DNA from: an uncultured delta proteobacterium
GTDB taxonomy: Bacteria > Desulfobacterota > RBG-13-43-22
DNA: 64,000 bases
Direction of reading: 5' to 3'
Assembly: GCA_963743305.1 (NCBI GenBank)
Contig: CAVUPH010000022.1
Location: 32,001 to 96,000, forward strand
Below, in pieces: positions 12,721 to 63,965 of this stretch. The position numbers were made by a program, and so were the translations under genes. The notes beneath the pieces are model-generated. The model was not told where the DNA came from. It saw only the letters and a program-made list of their open reading frames with translations, and searched no databases. Each line of letters begins with the position of its first letter. Position 1 is the stretch's first letter.

Positions 12721-13194
12721 TTACTTCGTCGTTTCTGTCTTGGTCTTTGTGGTGGTGGTCTCCGTCTCTGTGGTGGTGGCCTTCATTTTCCTCGCTTTAC
12801 CCCTGGTGACTGAAGAGGCCATCATCTTGCCGTCTTTCTCCATGTACTTCACCGTGACCATGTCGCCGGCCTTCGCTTCGCCCTTCATCTTGGCGCCTGA
12901 AACATCGAAGGTCATCTCGGCCTTCTTGCCTTTGACGGTCATCATCTTCTCGGCCATATCCATGTTCGTGACTCTGCCCGTTAACATCAGGGCTTTGGTT
13001 CTCGTTGTTTTGGTAACTGTTTCCTTTTTTTCAGGTGTGGTAGTGGTAGTGGTAGTTGTTTCCTTCTTCGTAGGCGGGGTTGTGGTAGTCGTAGTGGTAG
13101 TGGTTTCCTTCTTCTCAGTTGTCTGCGCAACTACAGTCGTCATAAACGCAACACTAATAAGAACCGCCAAACCGACCGATAACGCTTTCTTCAT
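12721..13194 (-). CDS. Secreted Thr-rich protein with small Met-rich beta domain
   Basis: Signal peptide MKKALSVGLAVL..VVA, KKET-poly-Thr repeats, central TGRV..VKG...AGDMVTVKY; GGAGG upstream. Confidence 0.75.
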   Translation of the reverse strand: MKKALSVGLAVLISVAFMTTVVAQTTEKKETTTTTTTTTPPTKKETTTTTTTTPEKKETVTKTTRTKALMLTGRVTNMDMAEKMMTVKGKKAEMTFDVSGAKMKGEAKAGDMVTVKYMEKDGKMMASSVTRGKARKMKATTTETETTTTKTKTETTK

Positions 13195-13260
13195 GATCTT
13201 GTTCCTCCTTTGTTTTTATTCAATTCACCAGCCTCTGTCCGAGATAAGGAATACGGTCGC

Positions 13261-13575
13261 CTATTTCACGATCAGATCATTCTTGACGGATGAAACCCCC
13301 TTGACGCTACCGGCGATTTGCCCCGCCTTATCGACGGTGCTTTTAGAATCAACGAAACCGCTCAGTTGGACGACGCCCTTCTGGGTTTCGACACTGATTT
13401 GGAATGACTTGAGAAAATCATCACTTGCCAGCAGGGCTTTAACTTTGGTCGTGATGACCGAATCGTCAACATATTCACCCGTACTCTCACTTTTAGCTGT
13501 CGATGCATAGCCGGCGAAGACGACTATCATCATAAGCAGCACTAAACAACGTATTACGACATTTCTCTTTTTCAT
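13261..13575 (-). CDS. BON domain protein (OsmY-like)
   Basis: DDSVITTKVKALL, VETQKGVVQLSGFV, VKNDLIVK; GGAGG before ATG 13575; paralog of 63651-63965. Confidence 0.9.
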   Translation of the reverse strand: MKKRNVVIRCLVLLMMIVVFAGYASTAKSESTGEYVDDSVITTKVKALLASDDFLKSFQISVETQKGVVQLSGFVDSKSTVDKAGQIAGSVKGVSSVKNDLIVK

Positions 13576-13702
13576 ACCGTTTATTCCTCCCTGTAAATTT
13601 GATTGGGTAAGGGTCATTAACAAGACCCTTGCTGCTCAACATAACCCTAAGTGGTTTCAGCTAAATTTTCCTCGACCTGCCGACCACCTCCTTTCAAATA
13701 CC

Positions 13703-14122
13703 TTACGCCTGCGGTATTCCTGTATCCTTCGCACCTCGCCTCAAATCCTCTCTGGCCTGTGTTGCTAAATTCTCATAATCGATTCGAATCTTGTCAAGGT
13801 CCTTCTCGTCTAATTCCTCTAGATCTAATAGCGCATTATGCGCACCTTCTATTACACGAATCAATTCATCTAATTTTACTTGTAAGGCCGCAGAGTCCCG
13901 ATTCTGCGTATTCTGAATTAAGAAGACCATAAGAAAAGTCACAATAGTAGTTCCAGTATTTATAACCAGTTGCCAGGTATCACTGAATTGGAAGATGGGG
14001 CCTGTAATTATCCAAATGATGATTATCGATACCGCCAGCATAAAGGCAATGGGCTGTCCGGTTTTCCTCGCAGTCATTTTTGCAAAGCGAGTAAACCAAG
14101 AAGTAGATTTAGTAGGCTTCAT
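13703..14122 (-). CDS. Low-affinity iron permease family protein (Fet4-like)
   Basis: FSDTWQLVINTGTTIVTFLMVFLIQNTQNRD...KLDELI signature. Confidence 0.9.
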   Translation of the reverse strand: MKPTKSTSWFTRFAKMTARKTGQPIAFMLAVSIIIIWIITGPIFQFSDTWQLVINTGTTIVTFLMVFLIQNTQNRDSAALQVKLDELIRVIEGAHNALLDLEELDEKDLDKIRIDYENLATQAREDLRRGAKDTGIPQA

Positions 14123-14158
14123 AATTATTCTCTCTCTGTCGAAGGATTCGGGTTCTGT

Positions 14159-14854
14159 TTACGCGGCCTTTCCGAAAAGAGCCCCGATGCCTGCGGTCAC
14201 GGCCATGGCTAGTGCACCCCAGAACGTTACGCGCAGCGCGCCTGCCTTCGCGCTTGCGCCGCCGGCGCGCGCAGCCAACCCACCCAGGAGCGCGAGAAAC
14301 AGCAGGGACACTCCAGCGACGAGAGGTACCAGGTTCGTCGCGGGTACTATGACGACGGTCAAAAGAGGCAGGGCGGCTCCAACGGCGAATGTGCTCGCCG
14401 ACGTGAGCGCCGCTTGAATCGGGCGCGCTGTGAGAATAGCGGAGATACCCAGTTCGTCGCGGGCGTGCGCGCCTATCGCGTCGCGAGCCATAAGTTGCCT
14501 GGCGACCTCCTTCGCCAGCGAAGGATCCAGGCCGCGACCCATGTAGATCCCGGCCAATTCCTCCGTCTCGTTTTCTTTGTCCGCGGAGAGTCCCTTGCGC
14601 TCAAGCACGAGGTCGGCCCGTTCGGTGTCCGACTGCGAGCTGACCGAGACGTACTCGCCGGCAGCCATCGCCATAGCTCCCGCGACCAGCCCGGCGGCTC
14701 CCGCGACCACTAAGCCGCTGTGAGTCGCCTGCGCGGCCGCTACCCCGAGCAGCAAGCTGGCTGTCGAAACGATGCCGTCGTTCGCACCCAAGACGGCCGC
14801 GCGAAGCCAGCCGATGCGTTGCATGCGGTGCCGTTCCCGGTGGAATATACGCAT
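14159..14854 (-). CDS. VIT1/CCC1 family Fe/Mn transporter
   Basis: WLRAAVLGANDGIVS, MAAGEYVSVSSQ, AHARDELGI motifs. Confidence 0.93.
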   Translation of the reverse strand: MRIFHRERHRMQRIGWLRAAVLGANDGIVSTASLLLGVAAAQATHSGLVVAGAAGLVAGAMAMAAGEYVSVSSQSDTERADLVLERKGLSADKENETEELAGIYMGRGLDPSLAKEVARQLMARDAIGAHARDELGISAILTARPIQAALTSASTFAVGAALPLLTVVIVPATNLVPLVAGVSLLFLALLGGLAARAGGASAKAGALRVTFWGALAMAVTAGIGALFGKAA

Positions 14855-14965
14855 TCTCTTGGCTAACCTTGTCCGGTTGGCTTCTCAACCAACTGGATTC
14901 TCCAGACTTTTCCTGGCGCTAAATAAGACTCTGCTTTTGCGTCAAAATAATGTGAAAAGTGGCCC

Positions 14966-15055
14966 CTATCGTCGTCTAGTCCAATAGTAACCGCCGCCCC
15001 CGCCGAACAATATGACCAACACGACAATGATAATGATGAGCGTTGTATTATCCAT
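14966..15055 (-). CDS. 29-aa membrane microprotein, copy 1
   Basis: MDNTTLIIIIVVLVILFGGGGGYYWTRRR; AAAGGAA upstream; near-identical copy at 23210-23299. Confidence 0.8.
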   Translation of the reverse strand: MDNTTLIIIIVVLVILFGGGGGYYWTRRR

Positions 15056-15119: not shown

Positions 15120-15299
15120 CTACTTTCCCAGGGCCTTCTCGACTTGGCCGATCTTTTCTTGCGCTTTGCCGGCCACCTTTTCGACTTTCCCTTCTGCTTC
15201 CAATAAAGGTTTTTTGCTGAGTTTCCCGGCGACTTCCTTGACCTTACCCTTCACTTCGTGAAACGTTCCTTCCGCCTGGTCCTTCGTGCTGGGTTTCAT
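15120..15299 (-). CDS. CsbD/YjbJ family stress protein
   Basis: DQAEGTFHEVKGKVKEVAGK...LEAEGKVEKVAGKAQEKIG; AGGAGG RBS before ATG 15299. Confidence 0.92.
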   Translation of the reverse strand: MKPSTKDQAEGTFHEVKGKVKEVAGKLSKKPLLEAEGKVEKVAGKAQEKIGQVEKALGK

Positions 15300-15412
15300 G
15301 GTATTCTCCTCCTGATGTTTTAGATTTCTCATTGTCTGTCCCTTGTCGGAAAAATCTTTCCGGGCCAGGTGATCGCTTCATTTCCAAATAGTTTGCCTTC
15401 TCCGGGAAGGGG

Positions 15413-15460
15413 TCAAATCGCACCAATCATCTTCGTCCTTCGTATGACTACCAGGATCAT
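15413..15460 (-). pseudogene. 5' remnant of an ABM gene (MILVVIRRTKMIGAI*)
   Basis: First 24 nt match the 60451 ABM start at 19/24, at the same 14-nt offset from the sigma54 -12 C. Confidence 0.55.
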
Positions 15461-15472: not shown

Positions 15473-15489
15473 TGCAAAGGGGTTGCCAA
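15473..15489 (-). promoter_or_regulatory. sigma54 -24/-12 promoter, module copy 1
   Basis: Minus strand TTGGcaacccctTTGCA, exact GG-N10-GC, 98 nt from the palindrome pair. Confidence 0.85.
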
Positions 15490-15585: not shown

Positions 15586-15620
15586 CCTCCATATTTGGTG
15601 GAACCTCCATATATCGAGGG
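15586..15620 (-). promoter_or_regulatory. Tandem palindromic enhancer (UAS), copy 1
   Basis: Minus strand CCCTCGATATATGGAGG-TT-CCACCAAATATGGAGG; 25 bp after the bEBP stop. Confidence 0.8.
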
Positions 15621-15644: not shown

Positions 15645-17405
15645 TTAATCCGAATCTTTGATCTTCGGACGGGATATTCCGAGCTTATGCATCCTGGCCC
15701 TCAAGGTGCTGGGGTGGAGACCCAGGATGGCTGCGGCCCCGTTCTTTCCTTCGAGGCGCCATCGGGTTTCCGTCAGGGTGTTGAGGATTTGGTTTCGTTC
15801 CGCCTCTTCCAAGGTATTCATACCCGCTGAAAAGGGGAGGGAGGCGATCTCCAGTTTATCCGTCAATTGCAGGACCGGCCCTGGGCATAAGATCACGGCT
15901 CGTTCAATGATACTTTCCAACTCCCGGATATTCCCGGGCCAATGGTAATCCTGGAGGGCCTTCATGGTTTCCTTTTGGATAGAGGTGATCTGCTTCCCCA
16001 GTTTTCTGGCATAGCGCTCCGTGAAGGCCTGGACCAGGATCGGTATGTCTTCCTGGCGCTGCCGCAAGGGAGGGACCGTAATGGGGAAGACATTCAGCCG
16101 ATAGTAAAGATCCTGACGAAACAGGCCTTTACGGACCTCCTCTTCGAGATTTCGGTTGGTCGTGGCCACGATTCGTACATCGACTTTAATGGTCCGGGAT
16201 GAGCCCAGGCGCTCAAACTCGCTATGCTGGATCACCCGGAGCAGTTTGGCCTGTAACTCCAGCGGCAGCTCCCCGATCTCATCCAGACAAAGGGTAGAGC
16301 CATGGGCGATCTCAAACCGGCCTATCTGCCGGGTATCGGCCCCGGTAAAAGCCCCCTTCTCCCGGCCGAACAATTCGCTCTCTATTAAGTTGGCCGGCAG
16401 GGCGGCGCAGTTGACGGTGATCAGCGGCCGATCCCGGCGGGGGCTCAGGTTGTGGATGACGGCGGCGATCAGTTCTTTTCCCGTCCCGGTCTCCCCGAGG
16501 ATGAGGACCGTTGTGGTCTGAGGGGCGACCTGTTCCGCTCGATAAAGAACGTATTTGAGACCATCGCTTTGGCCGAGAATGTGGTCGTAGGGTTGTTTCT
16601 TTTTGGCTTCTTGACGGAAATAGATATTCTCGGCCTCGAGCCGGTCTTTCAAGGTCTTGATTTCAGAAAGGGCTTGGCGAAGGGATTCTTCGTCCTGGTG
16701 GTGTTCTTTAATTTCCTTCCCCAGATGCTTGTTGGCTGTCCGAAGTTCGCTGGTCCGCTCCTCCACCCGTCGTTCCAGTCCATTGTGGGCTTTTTGCAAG
16801 GCCCCGGCCAGACGTTTCCGTTCGGTGATATCGCTCATGACCATGCGGTACTCGGGAGGTTCAGCGGCTTCTTGCGCGGCGGAGGCTTCCAGTCGCGCCC
16901 AGAATTCCGTTCCGTCCTTTTTCGCCATGCGCAGTTCGCACTCCTGCAGAGCCCCGGTTTCAAGAAGCAGTTTGTGCTGCCGATAATAGATATCCTGGTC
17001 CTCGGGGATGACGAACCGGGCGATCGGCTGCTTGACCAATGCCCGCCGATCCAGGCCGAGCATTTGGGCGGCAGTGAGATTCGCTTCCCAAATCAGCCCC
17101 TGCTCGCTGAGGGTGACATAGCCCACCGGCGCCAGATTGTAGAGGTCGAAATAGCGCGATCGAGCGGTTTCCAGTTCCATCTGGGCCCGGCGCAGCTCAT
17201 CGTTCTGCATCTCCAGCTCGATCTGGTGCACCCGCAGTTCATGGAGCGTCTGCCGCGTTTCTTCGGGCGATAGGACCACCGGGGCTTTCGACGACCGGGC
17301 TGCTTTTCCCCGGGCGATCTCTTCGGCCTGTCCGCGTAGAGCTTGCCCTGAGCTGGTCGAAGGGGCGGCTTGTTCGGGACGATCAGCCTTGCTTTTCGTT
17401 GTCAT
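15645..17405 (-). CDS. sigma54-dependent enhancer-binding protein (coiled coil-PAS-AAA+-HTH, FhlA-like)
   Basis: GETGTGKE, ESELFG.EKGAFTGA, LDEIGEL, RQDLYYRL, WPGNIREL; HTH GAAAILGLHPSTLRARMHKLGI; no receiver domain. Confidence 0.95.
   Translation of the reverse strand: MTTKSKADRPEQAAPSTSSGQALRGQAEEIARGKAARSSKAPVVLSPEETRQTLHELRVHQIELEMQNDELRRAQMELETARSRYFDLYNLAPVGYVTLSEQGLIWEANLTAAQMLGLDRRALVKQPIARFVIPEDQDIYYRQHKLLLETGALQECELRMAKKDGTEFWARLEASAAQEAAEPPEYRMVMSDITERKRLAGALQKAHNGLERRVEERTSELRTANKHLGKEIKEHHQDEESLRQALSEIKTLKDRLEAENIYFRQEAKKKQPYDHILGQSDGLKYVLYRAEQVAPQTTTVLILGETGTGKELIAAVIHNLSPRRDRPLITVNCAALPANLIESELFGREKGAFTGADTRQIGRFEIAHGSTLCLDEIGELPLELQAKLLRVIQHSEFERLGSSRTIKVDVRIVATTNRNLEEEVRKGLFRQDLYYRLNVFPITVPPLRQRQEDIPILVQAFTERYARKLGKQITSIQKETMKALQDYHWPGNIRELESIIERAVILCPGPVLQLTDKLEIASLPFSAGMNTLEEAERNQILNTLTETRWRLEGKNGAAAILGLHPSTLRARMHKLGISRPKIKDSD
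17341..17364. repeat. REP-like palindrome half embedded in-frame in the bEBP (encodes PSTSSGQA)
   Basis: GCTTGCCCTGAGCTGGTCGAAGGG matches the arm of the intergenic palindrome at 38590-38656. Confidence 0.65.
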
Positions 17406-18983: not shown

Positions 18984-20483
18984 TTACCCTCTCCCATAGG
19001 TCTCGGTCAGAGAACGGAGTTGGGCAGTGACGGCCTCGCTGAGCTGTTCCGGCTTAAACCTCCAGGTCCAATTGCCGTGAGCAACCGATGGTTTGTTCAT
19101 CCGGGCTTCCTGGCCGAGGCCCAAGACGTCCTGCAGGGGGAAGATCGCCGTATCGGCCACAGACATCATGGCCAGCCGGATGAGCTCCCAGTTGACGTCC
19201 GGGGACGCGATTTTTCTGCCCAGGTACCGGAAGAGCCTCTCTAACTCCTCGGGCCGGGCCTCACGGTCGAACCAGCCTCTGGCCGTGTTGTTATCGTGCG
19301 TGCCGGTATAAACCACGCAGTTCCTTCCGTAGTTGTGGGGCAGATAGCTGTGCAGGGGATCGTCCTCGCCAAAGGCAAAGAGAAGGATCTTCATCCCTGG
19401 GAGGCCCAGACGGGTGATGGTTTCGCTGACGTCGGGCGTGATGATTCCCAGGTCTTCCGCAATCAGAGGGAGGCGGGGGAAAGAGCTGCCGAGCCGGTCA
19501 AAGAAGTCATCCGTGGGCACCTCCACCCAGCACCCGTTCACCGCGCTCTTCTCCTGAACAGGCACTTCCCAATAGGCCACGAGCCCCCGGAAGTGGTCTA
19601 CCCTAACCAGGTCGCAGAGGCGCAGCGAGTGGCCCATTCGCTCTACCCACCAGGCATAACCGGTCTCCCGGAGGGCATTCCAATCGTACACCGGATTACC
19701 CCACAACTGACCGCTGGAGCTGAAATAGTCGGGTGGCACCCCTGCCACCGCAACGGGCCGTTTCTCTCCGTCGAGTTTGAATATCTCCCGATGGGCCCAC
19801 ACGTCGGCGCTGTCATAGCTGACGTAAATGGGGATGTCGCCGACGATCTGTATGCCGCGACGGTTACAGTACTCCTTTATCTCCTTCCATTGTTCGAAAA
19901 AGAGGTACTGTTCAAATTTTTCCCTTTCTATGTCCGCCGCGCATTCGGTTTGGACCGCGGCCATTTTCTCAGTTACCCTGTCCCTCAATTCCACGGGCCA
20001 TTCGCTCCAGGGCCTGCCGTCAAAGCGCTTTTTCAGGGCGACGAAAAACGAGTAGTTGTCGAGCCAGGAGGCATTATCCAGACAAAAACGGTCAAACCGG
20101 TCCCGATAGGTACCGTTCTTGCTGAAACGGTCATAGGCGCGGTCCAGTACCGTTTTCTTGTAGTCGTTTACGGCATCGTAGTCGCATCGTTCCTCGGAAA
20201 AGGTGTGTTGGCCGTCCAGCAGCGAAGCATCCAGGAGACCGTCTCGGACCAGCAAGTCGGGACTGATGAGGAGGGTATTTCCCGCAAAGGTGGAGACGCT
20301 GCTATAGGGGGAGTTGCCGTAGGCGGACACGGTGGGGCTCAGGGGAAGGACCTGCCAGAAACGCTGTCTCGTTTTCTCCAGAAAATCGGCAAACCGATAG
20401 GCCCAGGGTCCGAGATCGCCGATGCCGTAAGGGGATGGAAGGGACGTGACGTGGAGAAGAATTCCAGAGCCTCTTTTATTCAT
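18984..20483 (-). CDS. malQ: 4-alpha-glucanotransferase (GH77)
   Basis: SGILLHVTSLP, GDIPIYV, GVPPDYFS, RVDHFRG, AEDLG, YTGTHDN. Confidence 0.95.
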   Translation of the reverse strand: MNKRGSGILLHVTSLPSPYGIGDLGPWAYRFADFLEKTRQRFWQVLPLSPTVSAYGNSPYSSVSTFAGNTLLISPDLLVRDGLLDASLLDGQHTFSEERCDYDAVNDYKKTVLDRAYDRFSKNGTYRDRFDRFCLDNASWLDNYSFFVALKKRFDGRPWSEWPVELRDRVTEKMAAVQTECAADIEREKFEQYLFFEQWKEIKEYCNRRGIQIVGDIPIYVSYDSADVWAHREIFKLDGEKRPVAVAGVPPDYFSSSGQLWGNPVYDWNALRETGYAWWVERMGHSLRLCDLVRVDHFRGLVAYWEVPVQEKSAVNGCWVEVPTDDFFDRLGSSFPRLPLIAEDLGIITPDVSETITRLGLPGMKILLFAFGEDDPLHSYLPHNYGRNCVVYTGTHDNNTARGWFDREARPEELERLFRYLGRKIASPDVNWELIRLAMMSVADTAIFPLQDVLGLGQEARMNKPSVAHGNWTWRFKPEQLSEAVTAQLRSLTETYGRG

Positions 20484-20588
20484 GCAGTTTTTTTAATCCT
20501 TTCCGCCGTCAACCGGGGTTGCCGACGCGAAAAAAATAAACCAACGAAGTGCGAGGACCAGGATACTCGGCGTATGGTCATCGCGAGG

Positions 20589-21065
20589 TTATGCCAGCCG
20601 CAGCAGGATCAACGACGCCCGGGCATCCCCTGGGCTTATGTCGGGCACGATCCTCAACTCCAACACCGTCACCCCGTGGAGGTTGAGGGCGTAGTCTTCA
20701 ACCTCGCGGGTCGTGCCGGGCGGACTGAACGTATACTGCTGGCGCAGAATCTCCCGGTAGGACCGCCCGCCATCCCCCGACCATCGGAGCACAAACTCCT
20801 GGGTCCGCTCCCGGCGCTCTTCCTCAAATTCAAGATGAATTTGCCTGAGTGCTTGCGGCTCGTCAAACACCAGGCGGATGGTCTGCTCCCCGGGTTCGCC
20901 GGCCAGCCAGCCTGGCCCACCGCCGGCGGTCAGCGCCGACTCAACGGGATGTCCGGCATCTTCGGAGGTAATCTCTACCTGCGCTAGACGCTCCAGGTCG
21001 AGCCAGTCCTGATCGACGAATGAGGATCCCTGTGGACTTCGATTGATCATCCGTTTGCGCATCAT
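20589..21065 (-). CDS. Galactose-binding-like/carbohydrate-binding domain protein
   Basis: TSED..HPVESAL, GW.A..PGEQTIRL.FD, RTQEF.LRWS pattern; lies between two glucan enzymes. Confidence 0.6.
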   Translation of the reverse strand: MMRKRMINRSPQGSSFVDQDWLDLERLAQVEITSEDAGHPVESALTAGGGPGWLAGEPGEQTIRLVFDEPQALRQIHLEFEEERRERTQEFVLRWSGDGGRSYREILRQQYTFSPPGTTREVEDYALNLHGVTVLELRIVPDISPGDARASLILLRLA

Positions 21066-21074
21066 AGGCCGAAC

Positions 21075-22889: not shown

Positions 22890-23209
22890 TTTCCCCTCCT
22901 TTTTCTTAATCAAGGCCATCGGGCCGGCGCCTGGCCTTGTTTGAACCGATAAGGATTATTCTCCGGTCGTTCCCTTTGATGAGAATTTTCGGAGAAAAAA
23001 AGTATAGGGTGAGAAAAGGAAGGGGTCAAGAAGCAAATTAAGTCGGAAGACCAAGGGAAATAACCGAGGCCGGTTTGCTGGAGGCCCCGGGTCACCTTGA
23101 AAATACCCAGGCCGACCCGGGTGGAACGGAACCGCGGGCAACGCGGCAGGCTATTCTCAAAACCTCCTTCCGGTCTTTGAGAGGCTGCTCCGAGGGTTGG
23201 AAGTGACCC

Positions 23210-23299
23210 CTACCGTCGTCTGGTCCAATAGTAACCTCCGCCCCCGCCGAACAATATGACCAATATGACGATGACGATGATGAGCGTTGTAGTATCCAT
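23210..23299 (-). CDS. 29-aa membrane microprotein, copy 2
   Basis: MDTTTLIIVIVILVILFGGGGGYYWTRRR; AGGAGGAG RBS. Confidence 0.82.
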   Translation of the reverse strand: MDTTTLIIVIVILVILFGGGGGYYWTRRR

Positions 23300-30536: not shown

Positions 30537-30594
30537 TTGGCTGGCGAATCATCTTCAGTTGGGAATAATTTAGTAACAAGAAAGGAGAAAAGCT

Positions 30595-48828: not shown

Positions 48829-48911
48829 ATCTCTGGGCTGGATCCGTTTCCGGGAGGCGGTGTCCCCAGAGCGAAGAAAAACGAAAGGCAAAGAATGAAA
48901 GGAGTACGGTT

Positions 48912-49667: not shown

Positions 49668-49724
49668 CCATTGAAAAGGAACCTGATCATGAAAACAAAA
49701 AAGGGGCCTGAAAGGAGCATTGGT

Positions 49725-54447: not shown

Positions 54448-54816
54448 AAATGATCGTTCCGGTGCCTATTCTATTGCCGGAGCTGTCCGACCGATGGGGA
54501 GGAAGCTCCGGCCAACCCGAGAAAAGGCCCCTATCTTTTAGGGGCCTGAATCATAGAGGTATTTGAAACGAGAAAAGGCGACTCTTTTTCAGCATTGACC
54601 TTCATCGTAATCCTCGGCCATGGTGTAGGATTAGCCTTTTCCAGGTATAGCGCAACGACTGACCTGGAAAGCGCCTCCAAAACATCAAACAGCAGTTTGG
54701 GGGGTTCGGGCCAGCAGATGCTGGAGTCCGAGGAAATGGTCCGGGCGCTCCATCCAGGATACCGTGATAAAGTGTGAATCAGCGTGCTGGCGAATATCGA
54801 GAATGGAGAGGAAGAT

Positions 54817-57261
54817 ATGGCAATTGAAAAAGGGATTTCCAAGGATCTAAAAGTCAAAAGCACATCAGACTATAAGAACATCTCCTTGGAGGAGATCGTT
54901 AAATTCCTGGGAACCTCCATGGACGGTCTTTCCGAGTCAGAAGCCGGAAAACGCGTCGAGGTATTCGGGTATAATGAAATACTCGAGAAGAAAAAGAATC
55001 TTTTTCTTGAATTCTTGTTGCGCTACTGGGGGCCCATGCCGTGGCTGCTGGAGCTGGCGATGGGGCTTTCAATCGTGCTGAGACATTACCTGGAAGGAAT
55101 AATCATCTTTGTGTTGCTCACGGTGAACGCCGTCATCGGCCACCTCCATTCACGCGGTTCGCAAAAAGCGGTCGAACTCCTTAAAAAGAAGCTGGCGATA
55201 AAAGCGAAGATAGTACGGAACGGGAAATGGCTCATAAAGGACGCGAAGGAGATCGTGCCCGGAGACCTCATCATCGTCGGCCTCGGGGATATTGTGCCGG
55301 CTGATGCCGTGATGGTGAGCGGAGAGATTTCAATGGATCAGTCAGCGCTCACCGGGGAATCCCTGCCAGTAGAGGCACACCGATCGGACATACTCTACTC
55401 CAGCTCCGTCGTCAAGCGTGGGGAAGCCCGGTGTGTTATTGTCAATACCGGTGCGAATACGTACTTCGGCAAAACAACGGAATTGGTCAAAACAGCAAAG
55501 CCGAATTCCCATCAAGAGCAAGTGATGATGGCGGTGGTCAAATATATGATGTACCTGGGGATAGCCGCCTCAATCTTGGTTTCATTGTATGCGGTGGTGA
55601 TGCATTTAAGTCTACTACTGATACTGACCTTCGCCGTAATCTTCCTCATGGGTGCAGTTCCAGTGGCCCTTCCGGCCGTTCTGACCATAGTCCAGTCAGT
55701 TGGCGCCCTGGAGCTTGCCAAAAAAGGAGCGCTGGTAACCAGACTCGATTCAATCGAGGATGCCGCTTCGATTGACATTCTCTGCTTTGATAAGACCGGG
55801 ACGATAACCCAGAACCGATTGTCAGTTGCCGAAAGCATACCATTCTCCGGGCAGACGAAAGAGGAGGTCATCACCACCGCCGCGCTGGCATCGCAAGAAG
55901 AAGGCCTGGACGTCATCGATCTGGCGGTTCTCGAATATGCCAAAAGCACGGGCGTTGATTTCAACGCCTACCAGCGGATTTCTCATACACCTTTTGATCC
56001 GTCGACTAAGAGGACCGAGGCGATCATCGGAGTCGGCGCAGCGCGTTTCAAAGCGGTTAAAGGCGCGCCACAGATAGTCCTCTCCCTATGCCGGGAAATC
56101 GATAAGGACGACTTGGCCAAGGCAGACAGGATGATAGGCGAGCTTTCCCGGAAAGGATACCGAACGATAGCCCTCGCCCGTTCGGAAGGCAGCGATCTGG
56201 ATAGACTTAAACTGGTCGGATTGCTGGCCCTCTCTGACCCGCTCAGGCCGGACTCAAAAAACATGATAGAACAGGCACGAAAGCTGGGAGTAAGGCCAAT
56301 AATGCTGACCGGCGATAATATGTCCATAGCTAAGGAGATAGCCCTTCAGGTGGGGATCGGCGGTAACATTATCCGGATGGCGGATATCGAGGGTTTGAGT
56401 CCTGACGAACAGGTAAAGGTTGTGGGAGAAAGTGATGGGTTTGCCGAGATATATCCTGAAGACAAGTACAAAATCGTCAAACTCTTGCAATCCAGGGGCC
56501 ACATGGTAGGGATGACCGGTGACGGCGTGAATGATGCGCCGGCGCTGAAGCAGGCGGAGATGGGGATAGCCGTGAGTAATGCAACCGATGTGGCCAAGGC
56601 TTCCGCGAGTGTGGTTCTCACCGAACCGGGGATCGGCGTCATTATCAACGCCATAACCATCAGCCGGCAAACCTATCAGCGAATGCTGACCTGGGTCATC
56701 AATAAGGTTACGAAGGTCATAGAATTTGTCGGCCTTCTGACCCTGACCTTTTTCTGGCTCCATGACATTGTGCTCTCTCTCCTGGGGATGTCGCTGCTGG
56801 TATTTGCAAACGATTTCGTGACCATGTCTCTGGCGACGGACAATGTAAAGCATACCCCGAATCCTAATCAGTGGAATGTGAAAAATATTACTCTGGCCTC
56901 CCTCATTCCGGGAATACTGCTGGTTGTAGAAGGTTTGATAGTCATATTCATTGGCAAGAATTATTTTCATCTCGAAGGGGAAAAACTGCGAACCCTGGTC
57001 ATGCTTAATCTTATATTCAACAGTCAGTTCAGGGTCCTGATCGTGAGGGAGAGACGGCATTTCTGGTCGTCGCTCCCGGGAAGGGAACTGCTTATCCTGA
57101 GCACGGCGACGATAATCGGGTTTGCATTGATGGGCCTATACGGCGTCCTGGTCCCGTCCTTGACATGGAATCAGGTTCTTATGGTTCTGGGATTTTCGAC
57201 GCTGTTTACGCTGGGTATAGATTTCCCTAAATACTATCTTTTCAAAAGATTCGGATTATGA
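54817..57261 (+). CDS. P-type ATPase, type IIIA (plasma-membrane H+-ATPase-like)
   Basis: WGPMPW, LTGES, AVPVALP, DKTGT, KGAP, TGDGVNDAPALK, M6 FAND. Confidence 0.9.
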   Translation: MAIEKGISKDLKVKSTSDYKNISLEEIVKFLGTSMDGLSESEAGKRVEVFGYNEILEKKKNLFLEFLLRYWGPMPWLLELAMGLSIVLRHYLEGIIIFVLLTVNAVIGHLHSRGSQKAVELLKKKLAIKAKIVRNGKWLIKDAKEIVPGDLIIVGLGDIVPADAVMVSGEISMDQSALTGESLPVEAHRSDILYSSSVVKRGEARCVIVNTGANTYFGKTTELVKTAKPNSHQEQVMMAVVKYMMYLGIAASILVSLYAVVMHLSLLLILTFAVIFLMGAVPVALPAVLTIVQSVGALELAKKGALVTRLDSIEDAASIDILCFDKTGTITQNRLSVAESIPFSGQTKEEVITTAALASQEEGLDVIDLAVLEYAKSTGVDFNAYQRISHTPFDPSTKRTEAIIGVGAARFKAVKGAPQIVLSLCREIDKDDLAKADRMIGELSRKGYRTIALARSEGSDLDRLKLVGLLALSDPLRPDSKNMIEQARKLGVRPIMLTGDNMSIAKEIALQVGIGGNIIRMADIEGLSPDEQVKVVGESDGFAEIYPEDKYKIVKLLQSRGHMVGMTGDGVNDAPALKQAEMGIAVSNATDVAKASASVVLTEPGIGVIINAITISRQTYQRMLTWVINKVTKVIEFVGLLTLTFFWLHDIVLSLLGMSLLVFANDFVTMSLATDNVKHTPNPNQWNVKNITLASLIPGILLVVEGLIVIFIGKNYFHLEGEKLRTLVMLNLIFNSQFRVLIVRERRHFWSSLPGRELLILSTATIIGFALMGLYGVLVPSLTWNQVLMVLGFSTLFTLGIDFPKYYLFKRFGL

Positions 57262-57803: not shown

Positions 57804-57991
57804 ATGAAAAAATAATGATTGTTTTGGCGAATTTGTTTGTTTTGAGTCATTCCGCATTTGCCCAGATGGGCAACGGTTATGGTGGCGGCCTGATGGGTGG
57901 CCATTGGGGATGGGGAATGGGCTATGGAGGGGGTTTTGGGATCATTATTGCGATTCTCGTTATTTTTGGTATCATCTATATGCTGGAATGA
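57804..57991 (+). CDS. Small Gly-rich membrane protein (ATG 57804 needs one extra A; open from ATG 57815)
   Basis: GGAGG RBS; MIVLANLFVLSHSAFA-QMGNGYGGGLMGGHWGWGMGYGGGFGIIIAILVIFGIIYMLE. Confidence 0.6.
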
Positions 57992-58261
57992 TGAGTTGAG
58001 ATAACGTACCGAAATGGAAACCATTTTAGTTTTGCTCTTCGAGGCGGCGCTTTAAGTCGAGTTCAAACAATTCTGGCGTAACCGCCTCACCAGGAAAAGT
58101 TGCTCGCGGATATCGACGGGCAGTTGCTGCGTCTCGAATCGGGAGAAACGGAAGCGTCCAACGAGCAACACCCGCCCCCGGACGGCGCCCCTAGACCGAA
58201 CCCGGGGGGGATAGTTGAACGTGAAAACCGGACTAACGAACGGGATAATGAAAGGAGTACT

Positions 58262-60196
58262 ATGCCCATCAAAAAATTGAAAGAAACAATGGATAAATTG
58301 AAGGACCAGCTTCGTTCGCTCTTCAACCCCCAGGACCCCCAGAAAAAGCAGAACGCCCTGCCCCCTAAGGCGCATTTCAGCATCTGGTATTTTCTGATCG
58401 TTTTCCTATTATTTAGTTTCGTCCAACAATACTTTCTTTCTGGAAAAGTGGAGACCATCCCTTACAGCCAATTTAAGCAATACCTGGCCGAGGGGACCGT
58501 AGTTAAACTGACCATCGGCCCGGATAACATCAACGGAACGCTGAAAGGAAAAGAAAAAAAGCCGGGGCAGGAGTTCACCACGATTCGGGTGAACGATCCC
58601 GACCTGGTGAAAGATCTGGACGCGCATAAGGTCAATTACTCCGGACACTATGAGAGTAAATTCCTGAGCGGTCTTCTTTCCTGGATTATTCCCATCGGCA
58701 TTTTTTTCCTGATCTGGCGATTCGCCATGAAAAAGATGGGGCCGGGGATGGGGGTCATGTCTTTTAGCAAGAGCAAAGCCAAGCTTTTCGCCCAGAACGA
58801 AACCCAGATCACTTTCGCCGATGTCGCCGGGATCGACGAGGCCAAGGAAGAACTTCAGGAAGTCGTGGAGTTTTTGAAGAGCCCCGGGAAGTTCCAAAAG
58901 CTGGGAGGGAAAATTCCGAAAGGCGTACTCCTGCTCGGCGCACCCGGAACGGGAAAGACCCTTCTGGCCAAGGCGGTGGCCGGAGAGGCCCAAGTCCCTT
59001 TCTTCAGCATCAGCGGGTCTGAGTTCGTGGAGATGTTCGTCGGCGTGGGCGCGGCGCGCGTTCGCGATCTGTTTTCACAGGCCACCAGCCAGGCCCCCTG
59101 CATCATCTTCATCGATGAATTGGACGCTTTGGGGAAGGCCCGGGGAATGAATGTCATGGGTGGGCATGACGAACAGGAGCAGACGCTCAATCAGCTCCTG
59201 GTGGAGATGGATGGATTCGAAACGAACAAGGGGGTCATCATCATGGCCGCCACCAACCGACCCGAAATCCTGGATCCAGCCTTGTTGCGTCCGGGACGGT
59301 TTGACCGACAGATCCTGGTCGATCGCCCGGATATTAACGGCCGGGAGGCCATCCTGAAGATCCATTCCCGAAGCGTACTTTTAGGTCCCGATGTCGATCT
59401 CCGTTTGGTCGCCGGCCGCACTTCGGGTTTTGTGGGAGCCGACTTGGCCAACCTGATCAATGAAGCCGCCCTCCTGGCCGCCCGGAAAAACAAAGAATTG
59501 GTCGAGATGACGGATTTCGACGAGGCCATCGATCGGGTGGTTGGAGGTCTGCAGAAAAAGAACCGGGTGATGAACGCCCAGGAAAAAGAAATCGTTGCCT
59601 TTCATGAGTCCGGTCACGCGATTGTGGCTGAATCGGTCGACCATGCCGACCCGGTGGCCAAAATCTCCATTATCCCTCGCGGGATCGCGGCCCTTGGCTA
59701 TACCCAACAGCAACCCACCGAGGATCGCTATTTGATGACTCGCCCGGAACTGCTGGACCGACTGGCTGTTTTTTTAGGAGGGCGGGTGGCGGAGGAGCTG
59801 GTTTTCGGAGAAATCTCCACCGGAGCCCAAAATGATCTGCAGCGGGCTACCGACATGGCCCGTTCCATGGTCGCGGAATACGGCATGAGCGATCGCCTGG
59901 GACTGGTGACCTATGAGCGCCCCCGTCAGCCGATGTTCCTTCCGGGAAATTATCCTTCTCAGAAAACCTATAGCGAAGCGAAAGCATCCCAAATTGATGA
60001 TGAGGTCGCCCGTGTCCTCGAGGAAGCCCATCAAAGAGTCCAGGGAATCCTCTCCGGGCGGCGTCCGATCCTGGATGAATTGGCCCATCTCCTTTCGCAG
60101 AAGGAAATTGTTCAGGGGGCAGAGCTCAGAGAGATGTTGGCCAAGGCCTCATCCAAACCCTTGACTCTTCTGCCGGAGACCACGGAGCCTTCTTAA
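58262..60196 (+). CDS. ftsH: ATP-dependent zinc metalloprotease FtsH
   Basis: Two TMs, [31 protein letters not shown]; AAAGGAG RBS before 58262. Confidence 0.96.
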
Positions 60197-60291: not shown

Positions 60292-60326
60292 CCCTCCATA
60301 TCTGGAGGTTCCGCCAAATATGGAGG
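60292..60326 (+). promoter_or_regulatory. Tandem palindromic enhancer (UAS), copy 4
   Basis: CCCTCCATATCTGGAGG-TT-CCGCCAAATATGGAGG. Confidence 0.82.
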
Positions 60327-60421: not shown

Positions 60422-60438
60422 TTGGCAACCTCTTTGCA
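60422..60438 (+). promoter_or_regulatory. sigma54 promoter, copy 4
   Basis: TTGGcaacctctTTGCA, GG-N10-GC, 97 nt after UAS. Confidence 0.85.
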
Positions 60439-60450: not shown

Positions 60451-60786
60451 ATGATCCTGGTCATCACCCGAATGAAGATTTCGGCTGCCAAGCGGCTGGA
60501 GCTGTCACAGACCATTGCTTTATTGATCGGTTCCATGAGGACGGAACCGGGATGTCGGCGTTTCGACTTTTGCCAAAATGTGGAGAATGAAAATGACCTC
60601 TATCTTCTTGAGGAATGGGAAAACCAGGAAAGTCTTAAAAACCACCTGAGATCGGAGCGTTTTAAGGTACTTCGCGGAGCCATGAACCTTCTCCGGGAGC
60701 CCTATGAGATGCAGTTTCACACCCTCGTCCAACTATCGGGGTCGGAGAATTTAATGAGATTAGTGAACCCACCCTTGATGGACTAA
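60451..60786 (+). CDS. ABM domain protein (putative quinol monooxygenase)
   Basis: R.EPGC, LLEEWENQESLKNHLRSERF; start set at MILVITRM. Confidence 0.85.
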   Translation: MILVITRMKISAAKRLELSQTIALLIGSMRTEPGCRRFDFCQNVENENDLYLLEEWENQESLKNHLRSERFKVLRGAMNLLREPYEMQFHTLVQLSGSENLMRLVNPPLMD

Positions 60787-60858
60787 AACGAAGGGGATGT
60801 TTGGACGAAGGACCTTGCCGGCAAATTAATCACTTACCAAAAGAAAGAGAGGCAGCTT

Positions 60859-61389
60859 ATGCGTTTTAGCAAGATCTTCCTATTGATGACTTTGAGTCTG
60901 GCCGTTGGTTTCTTGGGTTGCACGACAGCGCAAAAGACGGAGGCTCCCAAACAGGAGCAGGTTACAAAAAATCTGGTTCCCCCAAAGGCCGAGGTCAAGG
61001 GCCAGAATTTTCTTTTGGAGCTTAGCGACCTTCAAGTCACTATGATGGTAGACAAAACTTCGAAGGAGATCACCGGTACACCGAACCTTAAAGGCCGCAT
61101 CAAAATAACCAATCAATCAACTGATAATCTGGAAATACAAGGGGTTACCTTGGAATACCTGGATCAAGCGGGTCAGCCCATTCCTTTTACCTCCGGAGAG
61201 AAAATATCGAAGGCCACCATTTTCTTGCAGGCGGTTAAGCCCGGAGAGATTACCGAAGGTTCCATCGACGCCACCATCCCCAGGATGGCGCTCAAGGAAA
61301 AGGCCCTGGGAAAAATTGAAGTCAACCTGGTCTATGTCCCGACGCCGCTTAAACGAGAGAAGTTGTCCTTTTCTCAAAAGGTTGAATAG
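60859..61389 (+). CDS. Hypothetical lipoprotein
   Basis: Lipobox FLGC, beta-rich mature region. Confidence 0.75.
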   Translation: MRFSKIFLLMTLSLAVGFLGCTTAQKTEAPKQEQVTKNLVPPKAEVKGQNFLLELSDLQVTMMVDKTSKEITGTPNLKGRIKITNQSTDNLEIQGVTLEYLDQAGQPIPFTSGEKISKATIFLQAVKPGEITEGSIDATIPRMALKEKALGKIEVNLVYVPTPLKREKLSFSQKVE

Positions 61390-61557
61390 CCTGACGGGCT
61401 AGAAATACCGTCTTTTATTCAATAAAATACAGGATTAACCCTATTTGAAAATTATTTATGTCAGAGTAATTTTTAAAAGAGGGGCTGGTTTGGGGTACTC
61501 GTGGCGCCCGGGTGATCGATCCGAAAAAAATAATCAACTTTTCTTAAAAAGAGGAGG

Positions 61558-61995
61558 GTGTTTCACGTGAGTATAACCATGCCGGGAATGGAAACAAAGG
61601 GTGATTTTGAAAAAATCAGCAAGAAAAAACTAATGGAAGACCTCATGACCGTGGTGAACGATGCGGAAGAGTTGCTGAAAAGGGTTGCTTCCGACCAGAC
61701 CAGGGAATGGATTGCCATGGCGCAGGCCAAGGCGAAAAAATCGCTAAAGGCCGCCAATGACTGGCTCGCCGAGGAAGAAGCAACGATGACGGCCAAGGCC
61801 AGGGCAACGGCCAGGGCTACCGAGGACTATGTCCGGACCAATACCTGGATGGTCATGGGGATGGCGGCTATGGCCGGCTTGGTCGTCGGTATTTTGGCTG
61901 TACGACGCGGGCTGCCCGTCATAGAGGAGGGGAAAAGGCTGGTCACTCAAGTTTTGGGTACCGGGGACGATGGAAAAGTGCTGGAGAAACTCTAG
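61558..61995 (+). CDS. DUF883/ElaB/YqjD family protein (start may be 61567 or later)
   Basis: LMEDL..VVNDAEELL ... TEDYVRTNTW..MGMAAMAGLVVGIL. Confidence 0.85.
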   Translation: MFHVSITMPGMETKGDFEKISKKKLMEDLMTVVNDAEELLKRVASDQTREWIAMAQAKAKKSLKAANDWLAEEEATMTAKARATARATEDYVRTNTWMVMGMAAMAGLVVGILAVRRGLPVIEEGKRLVTQVLGTGDDGKVLEKL

Positions 61996-62025
61996 GAGAA
62001 CAATCCCTATAAAGGAAGGATAACC

Positions 62026-62670
62026 ATGCCACAGAAGATATTCTTTTCAATGCTTTTCATAGGTTTTCTCCTGATCGCCTGGGCTTTCCCTTCAGGACCG
62101 AAAGCTCAACCTGCTCAATCTTCAACGGTTAAGGCAGAGGAACCTGAATCTTCATTTCAGAAAGCTGATGAGTTCTTTCTGAAGAAAGACTTAAAAGCGG
62201 CTGCCGCTGAAATTCGCAAAGGCGCCGGATTTCTAAAAAAGGAAGTAAAAAAGGCCTCAAAGGATGGGAAAAGGGGCCTCCAGGCGTCCGTTCAAGAATT
62301 AGAGCAATTAGCCAAGGAGGTTGAAAAAGGGACAGTGACTTCCGAGGACAAACTCAAAGAAACCTTTGCGAGATCCTATGAGGCCTTAGCGCATCATCAA
62401 TATCTCAAGGCTTCTGAATCCTGGGCGAAGAAAAAGACCAAAGAGACCGGCCAGGCCCTGACCGCCGCAGCGCAGTATCTGGAGGAAACGGCCAGATGGT
62501 CGGGTCGCAAACTGGAAACGGGTACGGCTGACGCCGTAAGCTACGCCCGTACGGTCGGCGGAAAACTCATCAAAGGTGCAGGTTATGGCGTGGAAGAGGT
62601 TGGAAAAGGGATCAAAGAAATGGGCCGTGAGCTTTCCAACCTCGTCAAAAAGACGGAGCCTCAAAAATAA
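62026..62670 (+). CDS. Secreted helical hypothetical protein
   Basis: Signal peptide, Ala/Lys/Glu-rich helices, AAAGGAAGG RBS. Confidence 0.75.
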   Translation: MPQKIFFSMLFIGFLLIAWAFPSGPKAQPAQSSTVKAEEPESSFQKADEFFLKKDLKAAAAEIRKGAGFLKKEVKKASKDGKRGLQASVQELEQLAKEVEKGTVTSEDKLKETFARSYEALAHHQYLKASESWAKKKTKETGQALTAAAQYLEETARWSGRKLETGTADAVSYARTVGGKLIKGAGYGVEEVGKGIKEMGRELSNLVKKTEPQK

Positions 62671-62690
62671 TTAGTGGGCACGATCATTCT

Positions 62691-62846
62691 TGATGGTTAA
62701 GCAAAAAGTCGCCAGCGCTGTCATTGCGAGGAGTGAAGCGACGAAGCAATCCCCAAGAATTATCCGGTTACCATGGGGGGATTGCTTCCCCCGGATCAGG
62801 TCCGGGGTCGCAATGACAGGTTCTTGGACTTTTTGCGAGGTTGTCA
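62691..62846. mobile_element. MITE-like nested palindromic element
   Basis: Outer arms GCAAAAAGTC/GACTTTTTGC, inner CTGTCATTGCGA/TCGCAATGACAG and GAAGCAATCCCC/GGGGATTGCTTC, plus CCCCGGA-TCAGG-TCCGGGG; no coding capacity. Confidence 0.65.
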
Positions 62847-62974
62847 CTCTTTAGGCGTATAAAAAGCGGCTTGTTACTAGACAACCTATTTAGTTCCCGG
62901 AAAGATGGAACTTCAAAAAGTCGCGGAGGCAGCAGAAGGGCAGTTCGATGATCCAAAAATAGGAGATCCCTGAA

Positions 62975-63298
62975 ATGAAAAGATATCTGGCATTGTCTCT
63001 TCCGATGATAACCGGTTGGCTCGTCTCCTGCAGCGGTCAAGGATACTATGGCCCGCAAGGTCCCGGTGGATGGGGGCCCATGATGCATTACGGATTTGGA
63101 TATGGAGGGATGTTCATGTGGATCCTATTCCTGATCGTCATTGGATTTCTGATCTATTTTATGGCGCAGACCCAAAAAACGAAGGGCCAGACGCCGAACC
63201 AGCCTGAAAGTCCCCTGGATATCCTGAAGAGGCGTTACGCCAAAGGGGAAATCGGAAAGGAAGAATATGAGAGCCTGAAAAAAGACCTTTCAGAATAG
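62975..63298 (+). CDS. SHOCT domain membrane (lipo)protein
   Basis: LVSC, G/M-rich tract, TM, SPLDILKRRYAKGEIGKEEYE. Confidence 0.88.
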   Translation: MKRYLALSLPMITGWLVSCSGQGYYGPQGPGGWGPMMHYGFGYGGMFMWILFLIVIGFLIYFMAQTQKTKGQTPNQPESPLDILKRRYAKGEIGKEEYESLKKDLSE

Positions 63299-63355
63299 AT
63301 CCTGACGGTGGGTCGAGTCAAAATAGGCACTTTGGTTGCCGGAAAGGAGGTCTCG

Positions 63356-63496
63356 ATGCTTTGGACCATAGTGGTAATCCTCTTAATTTTGTGGTTGCTG
63401 GGATTTATCGGTCATGTAGGCGGTGGACTCGTTCATCTCCTGTTGGTCATCGCCGTCGTCGTGGTACTGATCCAAGTGATCCAGGGACGCAGGTGA
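63356..63496 (+). CDS. lmo0937/DUF5670 family small membrane protein
   Basis: MLWTIVVILLILWLLGF...GGLVHLLLVIAVVV...GRR; AAAGGAGG RBS. Confidence 0.88.
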   Translation: MLWTIVVILLILWLLGFIGHVGGGLVHLLLVIAVVVVLIQVIQGRR

Positions 63497-63650
63497 TGGT
63501 ATCCGTTGGGGGACTTGCCGGAAAAGGATGAGTATTTGGAAAAAAAGTATTCGGGAGGTCCGGAAAGATTTAGCCGAACCGTACGAGACTTTCAGTTAGA
63601 AAGACTTTCGTAACCCATTAACCGCTAAACGACAGATAGGAGTAATCGCC

Positions 63651-63965
63651 ATGAAAAAGAGAAATTTTGTTATCCGTTATTTTGTTCTTTTATTACTGGT
63701 CGCCTTCTTGGCAGCCTGTGCCTCGACACGCACCCAGGAAAGTACCGGTGAATATGTTGACGATTCGGTCATTACCACCAAGGTAAAATCCCTGCTGGCC
63801 GCGGATGATTTTTTGAAGTCATTCAAAATTGGGGTGGAAACGTACAAGGGCGTCGTTCAACTGAGCGGATTTGTCAATACCCAAAAGGCTGTTGATAAAG
63901 CCATTCAAATTACCAGGAGCGTCAAAGGGGTCACTTCCATAAAGAATGACCTGGTCGTGAAATAG
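63651..63965 (+). CDS. BON domain lipoprotein (OsmY-like)
   Basis: Lipobox LAAC, DDSVITTKVKS, VETYKGVVQLSGFV. Confidence 0.92.
   Translation: MKKRNFVIRYFVLLLLVAFLAACASTRTQESTGEYVDDSVITTKVKSLLAADDFLKSFKIGVETYKGVVQLSGFVNTQKAVDKAIQITRSVKGVTSIKNDLVVK

Follow-up and report, generated by a model that had tools for sequence, protein, structure and literature searches.

A candidate sigma-54-dependent regulon of stress-protection genes in an uncultured member of the Desulfobacterota

A stretch of 64,000 nucleotides (nt) from an uncultured delta proteobacterium of the phylum Desulfobacterota (contig CAVUPH010000022.1 of assembly GCA_963743305.1, positions 32,001 to 96,000), hereafter the window, carries four clusters of co-oriented genes, P1 to P4, each headed by the same arrangement of an enhancer site and a sigma-54 promoter, together with the gene of a one-component enhancer-binding protein that ends just before P1. 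A fifth unit, P0, lies upstream of the window on the same contig (Table 1). The genes behind these units include members of the CsbD, BON, YtxH, DUF883 and LTXXQ families, and a preliminary description of the window had proposed that they form a general stress response regulon driven by sigma-54. The analysis reported here makes it likely that one enhancer-binding protein and sigma-54 run a regulon serving as a stress-protection programme in a lineage without RpoS.

The recurring unit was delimited by a 24-base enhancer core, TGGAGGYTCCNCCAAATATGGAGG, which matches the window five times with up to three mismatches and matches none of 100 dinucleotide-preserving shuffles. Two of the five matches overlap on opposite strands and therefore make up a single site, which leaves four sites, one before each cluster, as the preliminary description had held. 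As read from the DNA, each core is part of a 34-bp site, CCTC(N)ATAT(N)TGGAGG-NNCCNCCAAATATGGAGG, containing three good copies of the 9-mer CCTC(A/C)ATAT (one forward, two reversed) and a weak fourth, which together make up two imperfect palindromes of 16 bp whose centres are 18 bp apart. In all five units of the genome, the 34-bp site is followed, after about 97 bp, by TGG-N8-TTGCA, the geometry of a sigma-54 promoter; the consensus of the units, TGG(C/T)A-N6-TTGCA, preserves the spacing of the GG and GC doublets in TGGCAC-N5-TTGCW, with P2 and P3 forming a second subclass (TGGTA/TC...CTACTTGCA). The 34-bp site also has the position (about 80–150 bp from the promoter) and the dyad symmetry of an upstream activating site. 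The spacer has an A+T content of 61%. Scans of the whole 4.9-Mb assembly returned P1 to P4 and P0, all on one contig, and no further copy; no degenerate unit was recognized on reading the sequence near FtsH, near a cytochrome c gene and in the gap at 44.2–45.8 kb, nor was one found beside the paralogs that other contigs carry. The window gave no match in scans for Rfam families and tRNAs.

The putative activator matches the Pfam families Sigma54_activat (234 bits), AAA_lid_14, PAS and HTH_8 (a Fis-type HTH), and its sequence contains Walker A and GAFTGA motifs, i.e., the combination of AAA+ domain, GAFTGA loop and HTH that characterizes activators of sigma-54; it scores below the cut-off of every named activator equivalog in NCBIfam. 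The gene stops 26 nt short of the P1 enhancer, and in about 16 other assemblies tblastn on fetched loci placed an ortholog on the same strand as the site, with its 3′ end 37–45 nt ahead of the 24-base core. The AAA+ and HTH regions hardly vary among 18 orthologs, which fits a near-invariant DNA site, and the N-terminal sensor region is poorly conserved: open reading frames (ORFs) with their start on the contig encode about 530–665 amino acids (aa), with N-termini of at least two types (one-PAS and two-PAS). A PDB sequence search with residues 1–275, aimed at the sensor ligand, gave only a coiled-coil match to DctB (E = 0.0024), and no cofactor motif was identifiable from it. When orthologs (at least 60% identity) were cross-tabulated against motif matches in 18 relatives, 11 genomes had both, three had neither, two had only the ortholog and two only the motif. 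The ortholog-only genomes are 76–77% complete; one motif-only genome has its island cut off by the end of the contig, where the activator gene would be expected.

The sigma factor inventory of this assembly, which is 90% complete, comprises a single rpoN (TIGR02395, 441.5 bits against a cut-off of 277.35) and eight matches to the sigma-70 family, namely RpoD, two FliA/WhiG-type proteins and five extracytoplasmic function (ECF) factors, one of them truncated. No sigma-70-family protein of the assembly reaches the cut-offs for RpoS, SigB/SigBFG or RpoH, which answers the question raised by the preliminary description as to whether RpoS or SigB is encoded: neither is detected at these cut-offs. 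No sigma-like protein of the size of PhyR was detected either, EcfG itself not having been searched for, and none of 21 genomes of the family contains an RpoS above the cut-off. A second sigma-type match of about 318–349 aa is present in 18 of 20 relatives, and in one of them (G001) it is a sigma-32 (NF005143, 276 bits against a cut-off of 241); this sigma-32 was not found in the present assembly, probably through an assembly gap.

Across the window's family, the only one of its order and class in the genome collection used, the motif is present with up to two mismatches in 16 of 21 genomes, and a reversed-pattern control occurs in none. Exact matches were found in 12 genomes of a 401-genome sample of the phylum, eight in the same family and four in two other families, and an exact search through about 185,000 species genomes brought up 98 stretches (at least 39 assemblies among the matches listed), nearly all in metagenome-assembled genomes (MAGs) labelled Desulfatiglandales, Thermodesulfobacteriota or delta proteobacterium. 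A promoter element of the TGG-N8-TTGC type lies 113–123 nt from the core start at 87 of the 98 distinct sites, and in 84 of the 86 units with enough flank this distance is 120–123 nt, equivalent to a spacer of 96–99 nt. Since the seven-base pattern is expected by chance about once in 100 stretches of 160 nt, the pairing of enhancer and promoter is far beyond chance. The number of units per genome varies from one to about eight. The co-occurrence in relatives of activator clade, motif and cargo families, which the preliminary description had named as a check, is seen in the 11 of 18 genomes with both ortholog and motif and in the recurrence of the cargo, and the predicted sigma-54/activator wiring is strongly supported by this comparative evidence. 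The full unit was also seen in MAGs labelled Pedobacter, Thermoanaerobaculia and Acholeplasmataceae (loci L093, L098 and L116); at locus L098 it is followed by ABM, the 176-aa lipoprotein and DUF883 in that order. Misbinned contigs are likelier here than chance matches, given that the unit is present in full.

The units also carry a trace of how they may have spread. In 51 of 86 units an ATG stands exactly 12 nt after the TTGCA, and most of these frames open with MILVIIRMK..., which is strand one of the ABM fold; further on, the frame decays or enters unrelated sequence in many units. These ABM remnants indicate duplication as the way in which the unit spread, with the 5′ end of an ABM gene copied along. 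The same ATG is found in P0, P1 and P4, and in P0 the frame, MIPVTRRMKII..., runs straight into the lipoprotein signal peptide of a cardiolipin synthase, an apparent in-frame capture of the ABM-derived start codon of the unit. In the usual sigma-54 geometry, the transcript starts 12 nt after the C of the GC doublet; ABM-type transcripts are thus predicted to begin 1–2 nt before the ATG and to be nearly leaderless. The word "leaderless" does not occur in the accessible part of the sigma-54 regulome paper on Desulfovibrio vulgaris (PMC4641369), beyond which no wider literature search on this point was made.

The operons behind the units are listed in Table 1, with family calls from Pfam and NCBIfam. 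These confirmed the families that the preliminary description had named, i.e., CsbD and BON (two proteins each), VIT1, Fet4-type, DUF3096, DUF3309, DUF6600, AI-2E, YihY, LTXXQ, YtxH, Thivi_2564, ABM, DUF883, SHOCT and lmo0937. The microprotein, the lipoproteins, the small secreted proteins and the Thr-rich protein have no family match and were judged from their translations. The gene lists given earlier for P3 and P4 are right as far as they go and lacked the 92-aa protein of the former and the 214-aa protein of the latter, and the microprotein described in P1 is best read as the transmembrane ORF of 38 codons. As for the terminator assigned to the end of P1, the hairpin is present; it has no T tract, and the terminator scan did not list it.

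Table 1. Units, activator gene and operons of the candidate regulon (positions in the window unless stated otherwise)
Feature	Position	Strand	Remarks
P0 unit (fifth unit)	contig C22 21987-22134		outside window, 10 kb upstream
P0 cardiolipin synthase	contig C22 21987-23562 including unit (locus L147 9987-11562)		TIGR04265 294.7 bits, cut-off 290
P0 second gene, dual-specificity phosphatase-like protein	contig C22, outside window
Enhancer-binding protein, 586 aa, one-component	15645-17405	minus	coiled coil, PAS 85-195, S-helix linker, AAA+ with GAFTGA, HTH_8
P1 enhancer site, CCTCGATATATGGAGGTTCCACCAAATATGGAGG	15586-15619	minus
P1 sigma-54 promoter, TGGCAACCCCTTTGCA	15473-15488	minus
P1 ABM remnant, 15 codons, MILVVIRRTKMIGAI then stop	15413-15460	minus	starts 12 nt after promoter; aligns with P4 ABM start
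P1 CsbD	15120-15332	minus	likely start ATG at 15299; Pfam 58.4 bits
P1 single-pass membrane micro-ORF, 38 aa	14966-15082	minus	no family match; putative gene
P1 VIT1-family iron/manganese transporter	14159-14854	minus	Pfam 208 bits
P1 Iron_permease, low-affinity Fet4-type	13703-14122	minus	Pfam 182 bits
P1 single-BON protein	13261-13623	minus	OsmY-like, below OsmY cut-off
P1 secreted Thr-rich protein, 157 aa	12721-13194	minus	no family match
P1 hairpin after last gene, 13 bp, GC-rich	12672-12702	minus	see text
P2 enhancer site	30105-30138	plus
P2 sigma-54 promoter, TGGTCAACTACTTGCA	30237-30252	plus	leader about 139 nt
P2 operon	30402-35728	plus
P2 DUF3096	30402-30536	plus
P2 DUF3309	30595-30747	plus
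P2 DUF6600/FecR protein, 839 aa	30853-33372	plus
P2 66-aa protein	33417-33617	plus
P2 AI-2E-family transporter	33786-34880	plus
P2 YihY/BrkB-family protein	34820-35728	plus
P3 enhancer site	36039-36072	plus
P3 sigma-54 promoter, TGGTAGGCTACTTGCA	36169-36184	plus	leader about 165 nt
P3 operon	36360-39052	plus
P3 LTXXQ (Spy/CpxP/ZraP family)	36360-36863	plus
P3 two small exported Arg/Asp/Gly-rich proteins	36860-37192, 37308-37478	plus	no family match
P3 YtxH	37548-37814	plus
P3 CsbD	about 37885-38091	plus
P3 Thivi_2564 family	38219-38422	plus	74.2 bits, cut-off 33
P3 last gene, 92-aa protein	38774-39052	plus	no family match
P4 enhancer site	60293-60326	plus
P4 sigma-54 promoter, TGGCAACCTCTTTGCA	60423-60438	plus
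P4 operon	60451-63965	plus
P4 ABM, intact	60451-60786	plus	ATG 12 nt after promoter
P4 lipoprotein, 176 aa	60859-61389	plus	no named family; ESM Atlas: only unnamed clusters, same phylum
P4 DUF883/ElaB-like	61558-61995	plus
P4 214-aa protein	62026-62670	plus	no family match
P4 SHOCT	62975-63298	plus
P4 lmo0937/DUF5670	63308-63496	plus
P4 BON	63651-63965	plus

The cargo of the unit in other genomes was surveyed at 69 sites that had a promoter and no less than 1.2 kb of sequence downstream, from which a simple script extracted co-oriented ORFs for a Pfam scan (253 ORFs at 60 sites). ABM is the first gene in 24 of these 60 units, CsbD and BON are each present in 10, DUF3096 and FtsH in six each, DUF3309 in three, YtxH, LTXXQ or Metal_resist, AI-2E, OmpA, CreA, ice-binding-like proteins and baeRF in two each, and DUF883_C and PLD in one each. 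Of the 60 units, 23 contain one or more small stress-protein families, or 35 if ABM is counted, and locus L104 of another genome repeats the gene order of P2 with ABM in place of DUF3096 (ABM, DUF3309, DUF6600, AI-2E, BrkB). A whole-genome Pfam search of the present assembly placed both of its CsbD genes, two of three BON genes, one of two YtxH genes and one of five ABM genes in unit-headed operons; the regulon holds much, not all, of this type of gene in the genome.

Several results weigh against reading the set as one stress-protection regulon. None of the named families is found in 25 of the 60 units, and some units carry cargo that is not stress-like, i.e., B12-radical SAM proteins (4/60), PAS kinases or GGDEF proteins (4/60), a 362-aa GNAT protein (3/60), a histidine phosphatase with a class I aldolase (2/60) and an N-type ATPase operon (1–2/60); as the MAGs are related, their sites are not independent, and the cargo counts describe the regulon and do not test it. 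Gene calls outside the window are those of our own longest-ORF script and not of a gene finder. In the same genome, a two-BON gene, a YtxH gene and four ABM genes have no unit, nor do second copies, found by tblastn, of the start of the LTXXQ operon, YflT, PRC-barrel and the 92-aa protein. In two relatives, no ortholog of the activator was detected alongside the motif. An IHF site in the spacer was considered and dropped, the full consensus being present in two of 86 units, with shuffles giving 0.6 on average and 4 at most.

CsbD itself is found in 14 of 121 sampled genomes of the phylum. Of 12 csbD loci outside the family, two are preceded by a good sigma-54-like element at no more than 130 nt and one by a weak element, which are too few to claim a link between csbD and sigma-54 across the phylum; control of csbD by sigma-54 with other enhancers may nevertheless be wider than this unit. 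The two good elements come from two other families of the phylum: at locus L150 (genome G099), TGGCATAGTCATTGCT lies 79 nt upstream of csbD, and at locus L156 (genome G077), CGGCACGCTAATTGCT lies at 128 nt.

In the mechanism that we propose, the activator would bind the 34-bp site as two dimers, and a signal perceived at the PAS domain would free the AAA+ domain to assemble into an active ring. This ring would reach across the fixed spacer of 96–99 bp and touch the sigma-54 polymerase at TGG(C/T)A-N6-TTGCA, whereupon ATP hydrolysis would open the promoter. Five operons with about 30 genes would be switched on in this genome. The predicted output consists of hydrophilic and envelope protectants (CsbD, BON, YtxH, DUF883, the LTXXQ chaperone and the small secreted Arg/Asp/Gly-rich proteins), tiny membrane proteins, iron handling (VIT1 and Fet4-type), the ABM-fold protein and, at the membrane, the AI-2E-family transporter, the YihY/BrkB-family protein and a cardiolipin synthase that may serve membrane remodelling. 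The unit would have spread by duplication with the first ABM codons, whose start codon would stand 1–2 nt after the predicted start of transcription. A role in protection against stress is probable.

Three other accounts of the units have to be weighed. It is very improbable that they are duplicated DNA without present regulatory use and that the clusters are transcribed from sigma-70-type promoters. Many units do have decayed ABM starts, a sign of duplication and erosion, and a few weak sigma-70-like matches exist in these regions; yet enhancer, spacing and promoter are near-invariant across at least three families while the flanks and the ABM remnant decay, and the sigma-70-like matches stay within what shuffles give (5 against 2.6, 7 against 5.7 and 4 against 3.3 in the clusters). 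Only one 9-of-12 match falls on the coding strand between an enhancer and a first gene, at 36125–36154 in the AT-rich spacer of P3. Counts of intrinsic terminators in the four clusters likewise do not exceed those of shuffles, and as both kinds of match stay at shuffle level, the scans neither define the ends of the operons nor support transcription from sigma-70 promoters. A regulon answering a single cue, with the PAS domain sensing one condition, in these anaerobes most likely exposure to oxygen or redox change or else water or osmotic stress, is a serious possibility that falls somewhat short of even. The one-component PAS architecture points to it, as does the conserved core pair of about 16 assemblies, in which the activator gene is followed by the unit, with ABM first in 24 of the 60 units surveyed; the cargo includes iron sequestration genes (VIT1 and Fet4-type), a superoxide dismutase fragment, CMD, hydrophilin-like and ice-binding-like proteins and cardiolipin synthase. 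Known sigma-54 stress regulons, such as Psp, Zra and NorR, are cue-specific. The same applies to NmpR and oxygen, according to the accessible part of the paper describing it (PMC11841059). However, a sensor that varies between at least two N-terminal types over a constant DNA site argues against one fixed ligand, and the activator offers no identifiable cofactor motif.

The remaining account, that of a true general stress response in which sigma-54 and the activator replace RpoS, SigB or EcfG as the master multi-stress programme of the lineage, would answer starvation, osmotic, oxidative and temperature stress alike and would confer cross-protection, is possible and somewhat doubtful. In its favour, the hallmark protectant families of such responses are present (CsbD, BON, YtxH, DUF883 and LTXXQ), overlapping the targets of the RpoS, SigB and EcfG systems; all 21 genomes of the family lack a detectable RpoS, glycogen, pentose-phosphate, YflT, PRC-barrel and FtsH genes share the island, and the range from one to about eight units per genome shows the recruitment of new genes. 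On the other side, the master regulator is not an alternative factor of the sigma-70 family, the single PAS-type sensor of the activator gives no hint of a cascade with several inputs, five operons in this genome make a small regulon, a number of stress-type paralogs are not part of it, and sigma-32 in relatives and the ECF factors are available for other stresses. A one-component PAS activator, and likewise a variable sensor over a constant DNA site, fits a general and a single-cue programme alike, and the sequence does not decide between them. The preliminary proposal is thus borne out in its wiring and cargo (units, activator, rpoN and recurring families), while the word "general" is an inference. 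We regard as rather unlikely the fullest form of the idea, according to which the general stress response of RpoS-less Desulfatiglandales-type bacteria is governed by sigma-54 with a single PAS activator, and genes join it through a copied, portable unit of about 170 bp (enhancer, spacer, promoter and leaderless ABM start codon), sometimes fused to that start, as would be the case for the P0 cardiolipin synthase.

The stress-protection regulon favoured here shares features with several known systems. CsbD/YjbJ, BON/OsmY, DUF883 (ElaB/YqjD) and YtxH belong to the RpoS and SigB regulons, and the resemblance to RpoS of Gammaproteobacteria, SigB of Bacillota and EcfG/PhyR of Alphaproteobacteria lies in the cargo (CsbD, BON, DUF883 and YtxH, with YflT and PRC-barrel nearby); unlike these systems, the present one would have as its master sigma-54 with an ATP-dependent enhancer-binding protein, and its regulon is much smaller. 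Sigma-54 stress regulons as such are well known and include Psp, ZraSR-ZraP (which contains an LTXXQ protein), NorR and RtcR. With the phage-shock regulon of PspF the present one has in common sigma-54, an enhancer-binding protein, an upstream activating site and a link to envelope protection. PspF has no sensor domain and is held by PspA, whereas the present activator has a PAS domain (289 bits for the pspF model, against a cut-off of 443.55) and the cargo contains no PspA. ZraSR-ZraP resembles P3 in the sigma-54-dependent expression of a periplasmic LTXXQ protein, cf. the first gene of P3, for which this is predicted from sequence. ZraR is a two-component response regulator with a receiver domain, whereas the activator described here has PAS and no Response_reg (291 bits for the ZraR model, against a cut-off of 760), and its cargo is far broader.

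Closer in taxonomy is the sigma-54 regulome of D. vulgaris Hildenborough, a member of the same phylum-level group with many enhancer-binding proteins; in the accessible part of its description, the entry for the regulator DVU3305 bears the label "General stress response, transmembrane transport", and envelope stress is given for others (PMC4641369). DVU3305 is a response regulator over two adjacent operons, unlike the one-component activator of the window, and the accessible part of that paper contains no occurrence of CsbD or BON and no multi-operon unit like this one (PMC4641369). NmpR of the NmpRSTU system of Myxococcus xanthus, a soil bacterium responding to an environmental cue, is an NtrC-like activator that likewise combines a defined consensus site with sigma-54 promoters before several operons; as far as the accessible part of the report goes, it differs in being the receiver-domain activator of a phosphorelay with oxygen-use cargo instead of the small protectants found here (PMC11841059). 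A direct link between a general stress regulator and csbD has been reported for EcfG in Sphingopyxis, as stated in the accessible part of that study (PMC7083833). No publication linking sigma-54 to CsbD-type cargo or describing this unit was found, subscription journals being outside the coverage of the search, and by the literature searched the sigma-54 wiring of a set of small stress-protection genes has not been described previously.

To our knowledge, the general stress response is largely unexplored outside Proteobacteria and Bacillota, and we know of no model for Desulfobacterota devoid of RpoS. The candidate regulon offers a testable circuit with one activator, one 34-bp site, a defined promoter and about 30 genes, and with tens more operons in relatives. 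It would place small stress proteins whose functions are poorly understood (CsbD, BON, YtxH and DUF883) under an ATP-gated promoter with tight off/on control, and not under competition between sigma factors. A copied unit with an ABM-derived start codon would also illustrate how a regulon can grow, and it predicts near-leaderless sigma-54 transcripts.

The second copies without a unit (LTXXQ, YflT, PRC-barrel and 92-aa protein) lie on contigs C42 (about 41560–42580) and C37 (about 63800–78000), with 80–92% protein identity; the LTXXQ leader is visibly conserved between both copies, and the two small neighbouring genes were copied too. They may be paralogs or belong to a co-binned strain (contamination of the assembly, 5.7%). 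Upstream of P4, FtsH (58100–60196) has no unit of its own and is directly preceded by an ORF for a Gly-rich exported or membrane protein of 62 aa (57805–57993); several other genomes have FtsH, along with a 58-aa ORF, within units headed by ABM. Between P3 and P4, in a co-oriented stretch, 54784–57261 encodes, beside YflT and RpiB, a P-type ATPase of the plasma-membrane proton-efflux type IIIA (TIGR01647, 732.9 bits against a cut-off of 615.5), a type that is uncommon in bacteria. Many genes at 39934–51963 look broken: a 74-aa transaldolase fragment precedes PGI, a phosphoglucomutase matches positions 2–365 of a 546-position model, PAS and HisKA domains occur as fragments, a PRC-barrel gene is frameshifted (about 44500–45270) and a phosphoketolase (XFP) is in three pieces (49671–50441, 50272–51084 and 51556–51963), which could be due to gene decay or to assembly indel errors.

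Between the activator gene and P2, the region 18984–26040 carries a glycogen/maltodextrin set with MalQ (708 bits), a GH57/DUF3536 protein and a GH13 enzyme with CBM48 that scores below the GlgB and TreZ cut-offs, followed by a LuxR-type response regulator and a PAS kinase. At the other side of P1, a cluster resembling those of polyketide or polyunsaturated fatty acid synthases occupies 2488–11272 on the minus strand, with a phosphopantetheinyl transferase, a PS-DH dehydratase, a carrier protein, an acyltransferase and an 880-aa NMO/ketoacyl-synthase protein, next to an ABC-2 exporter at 368–2433.

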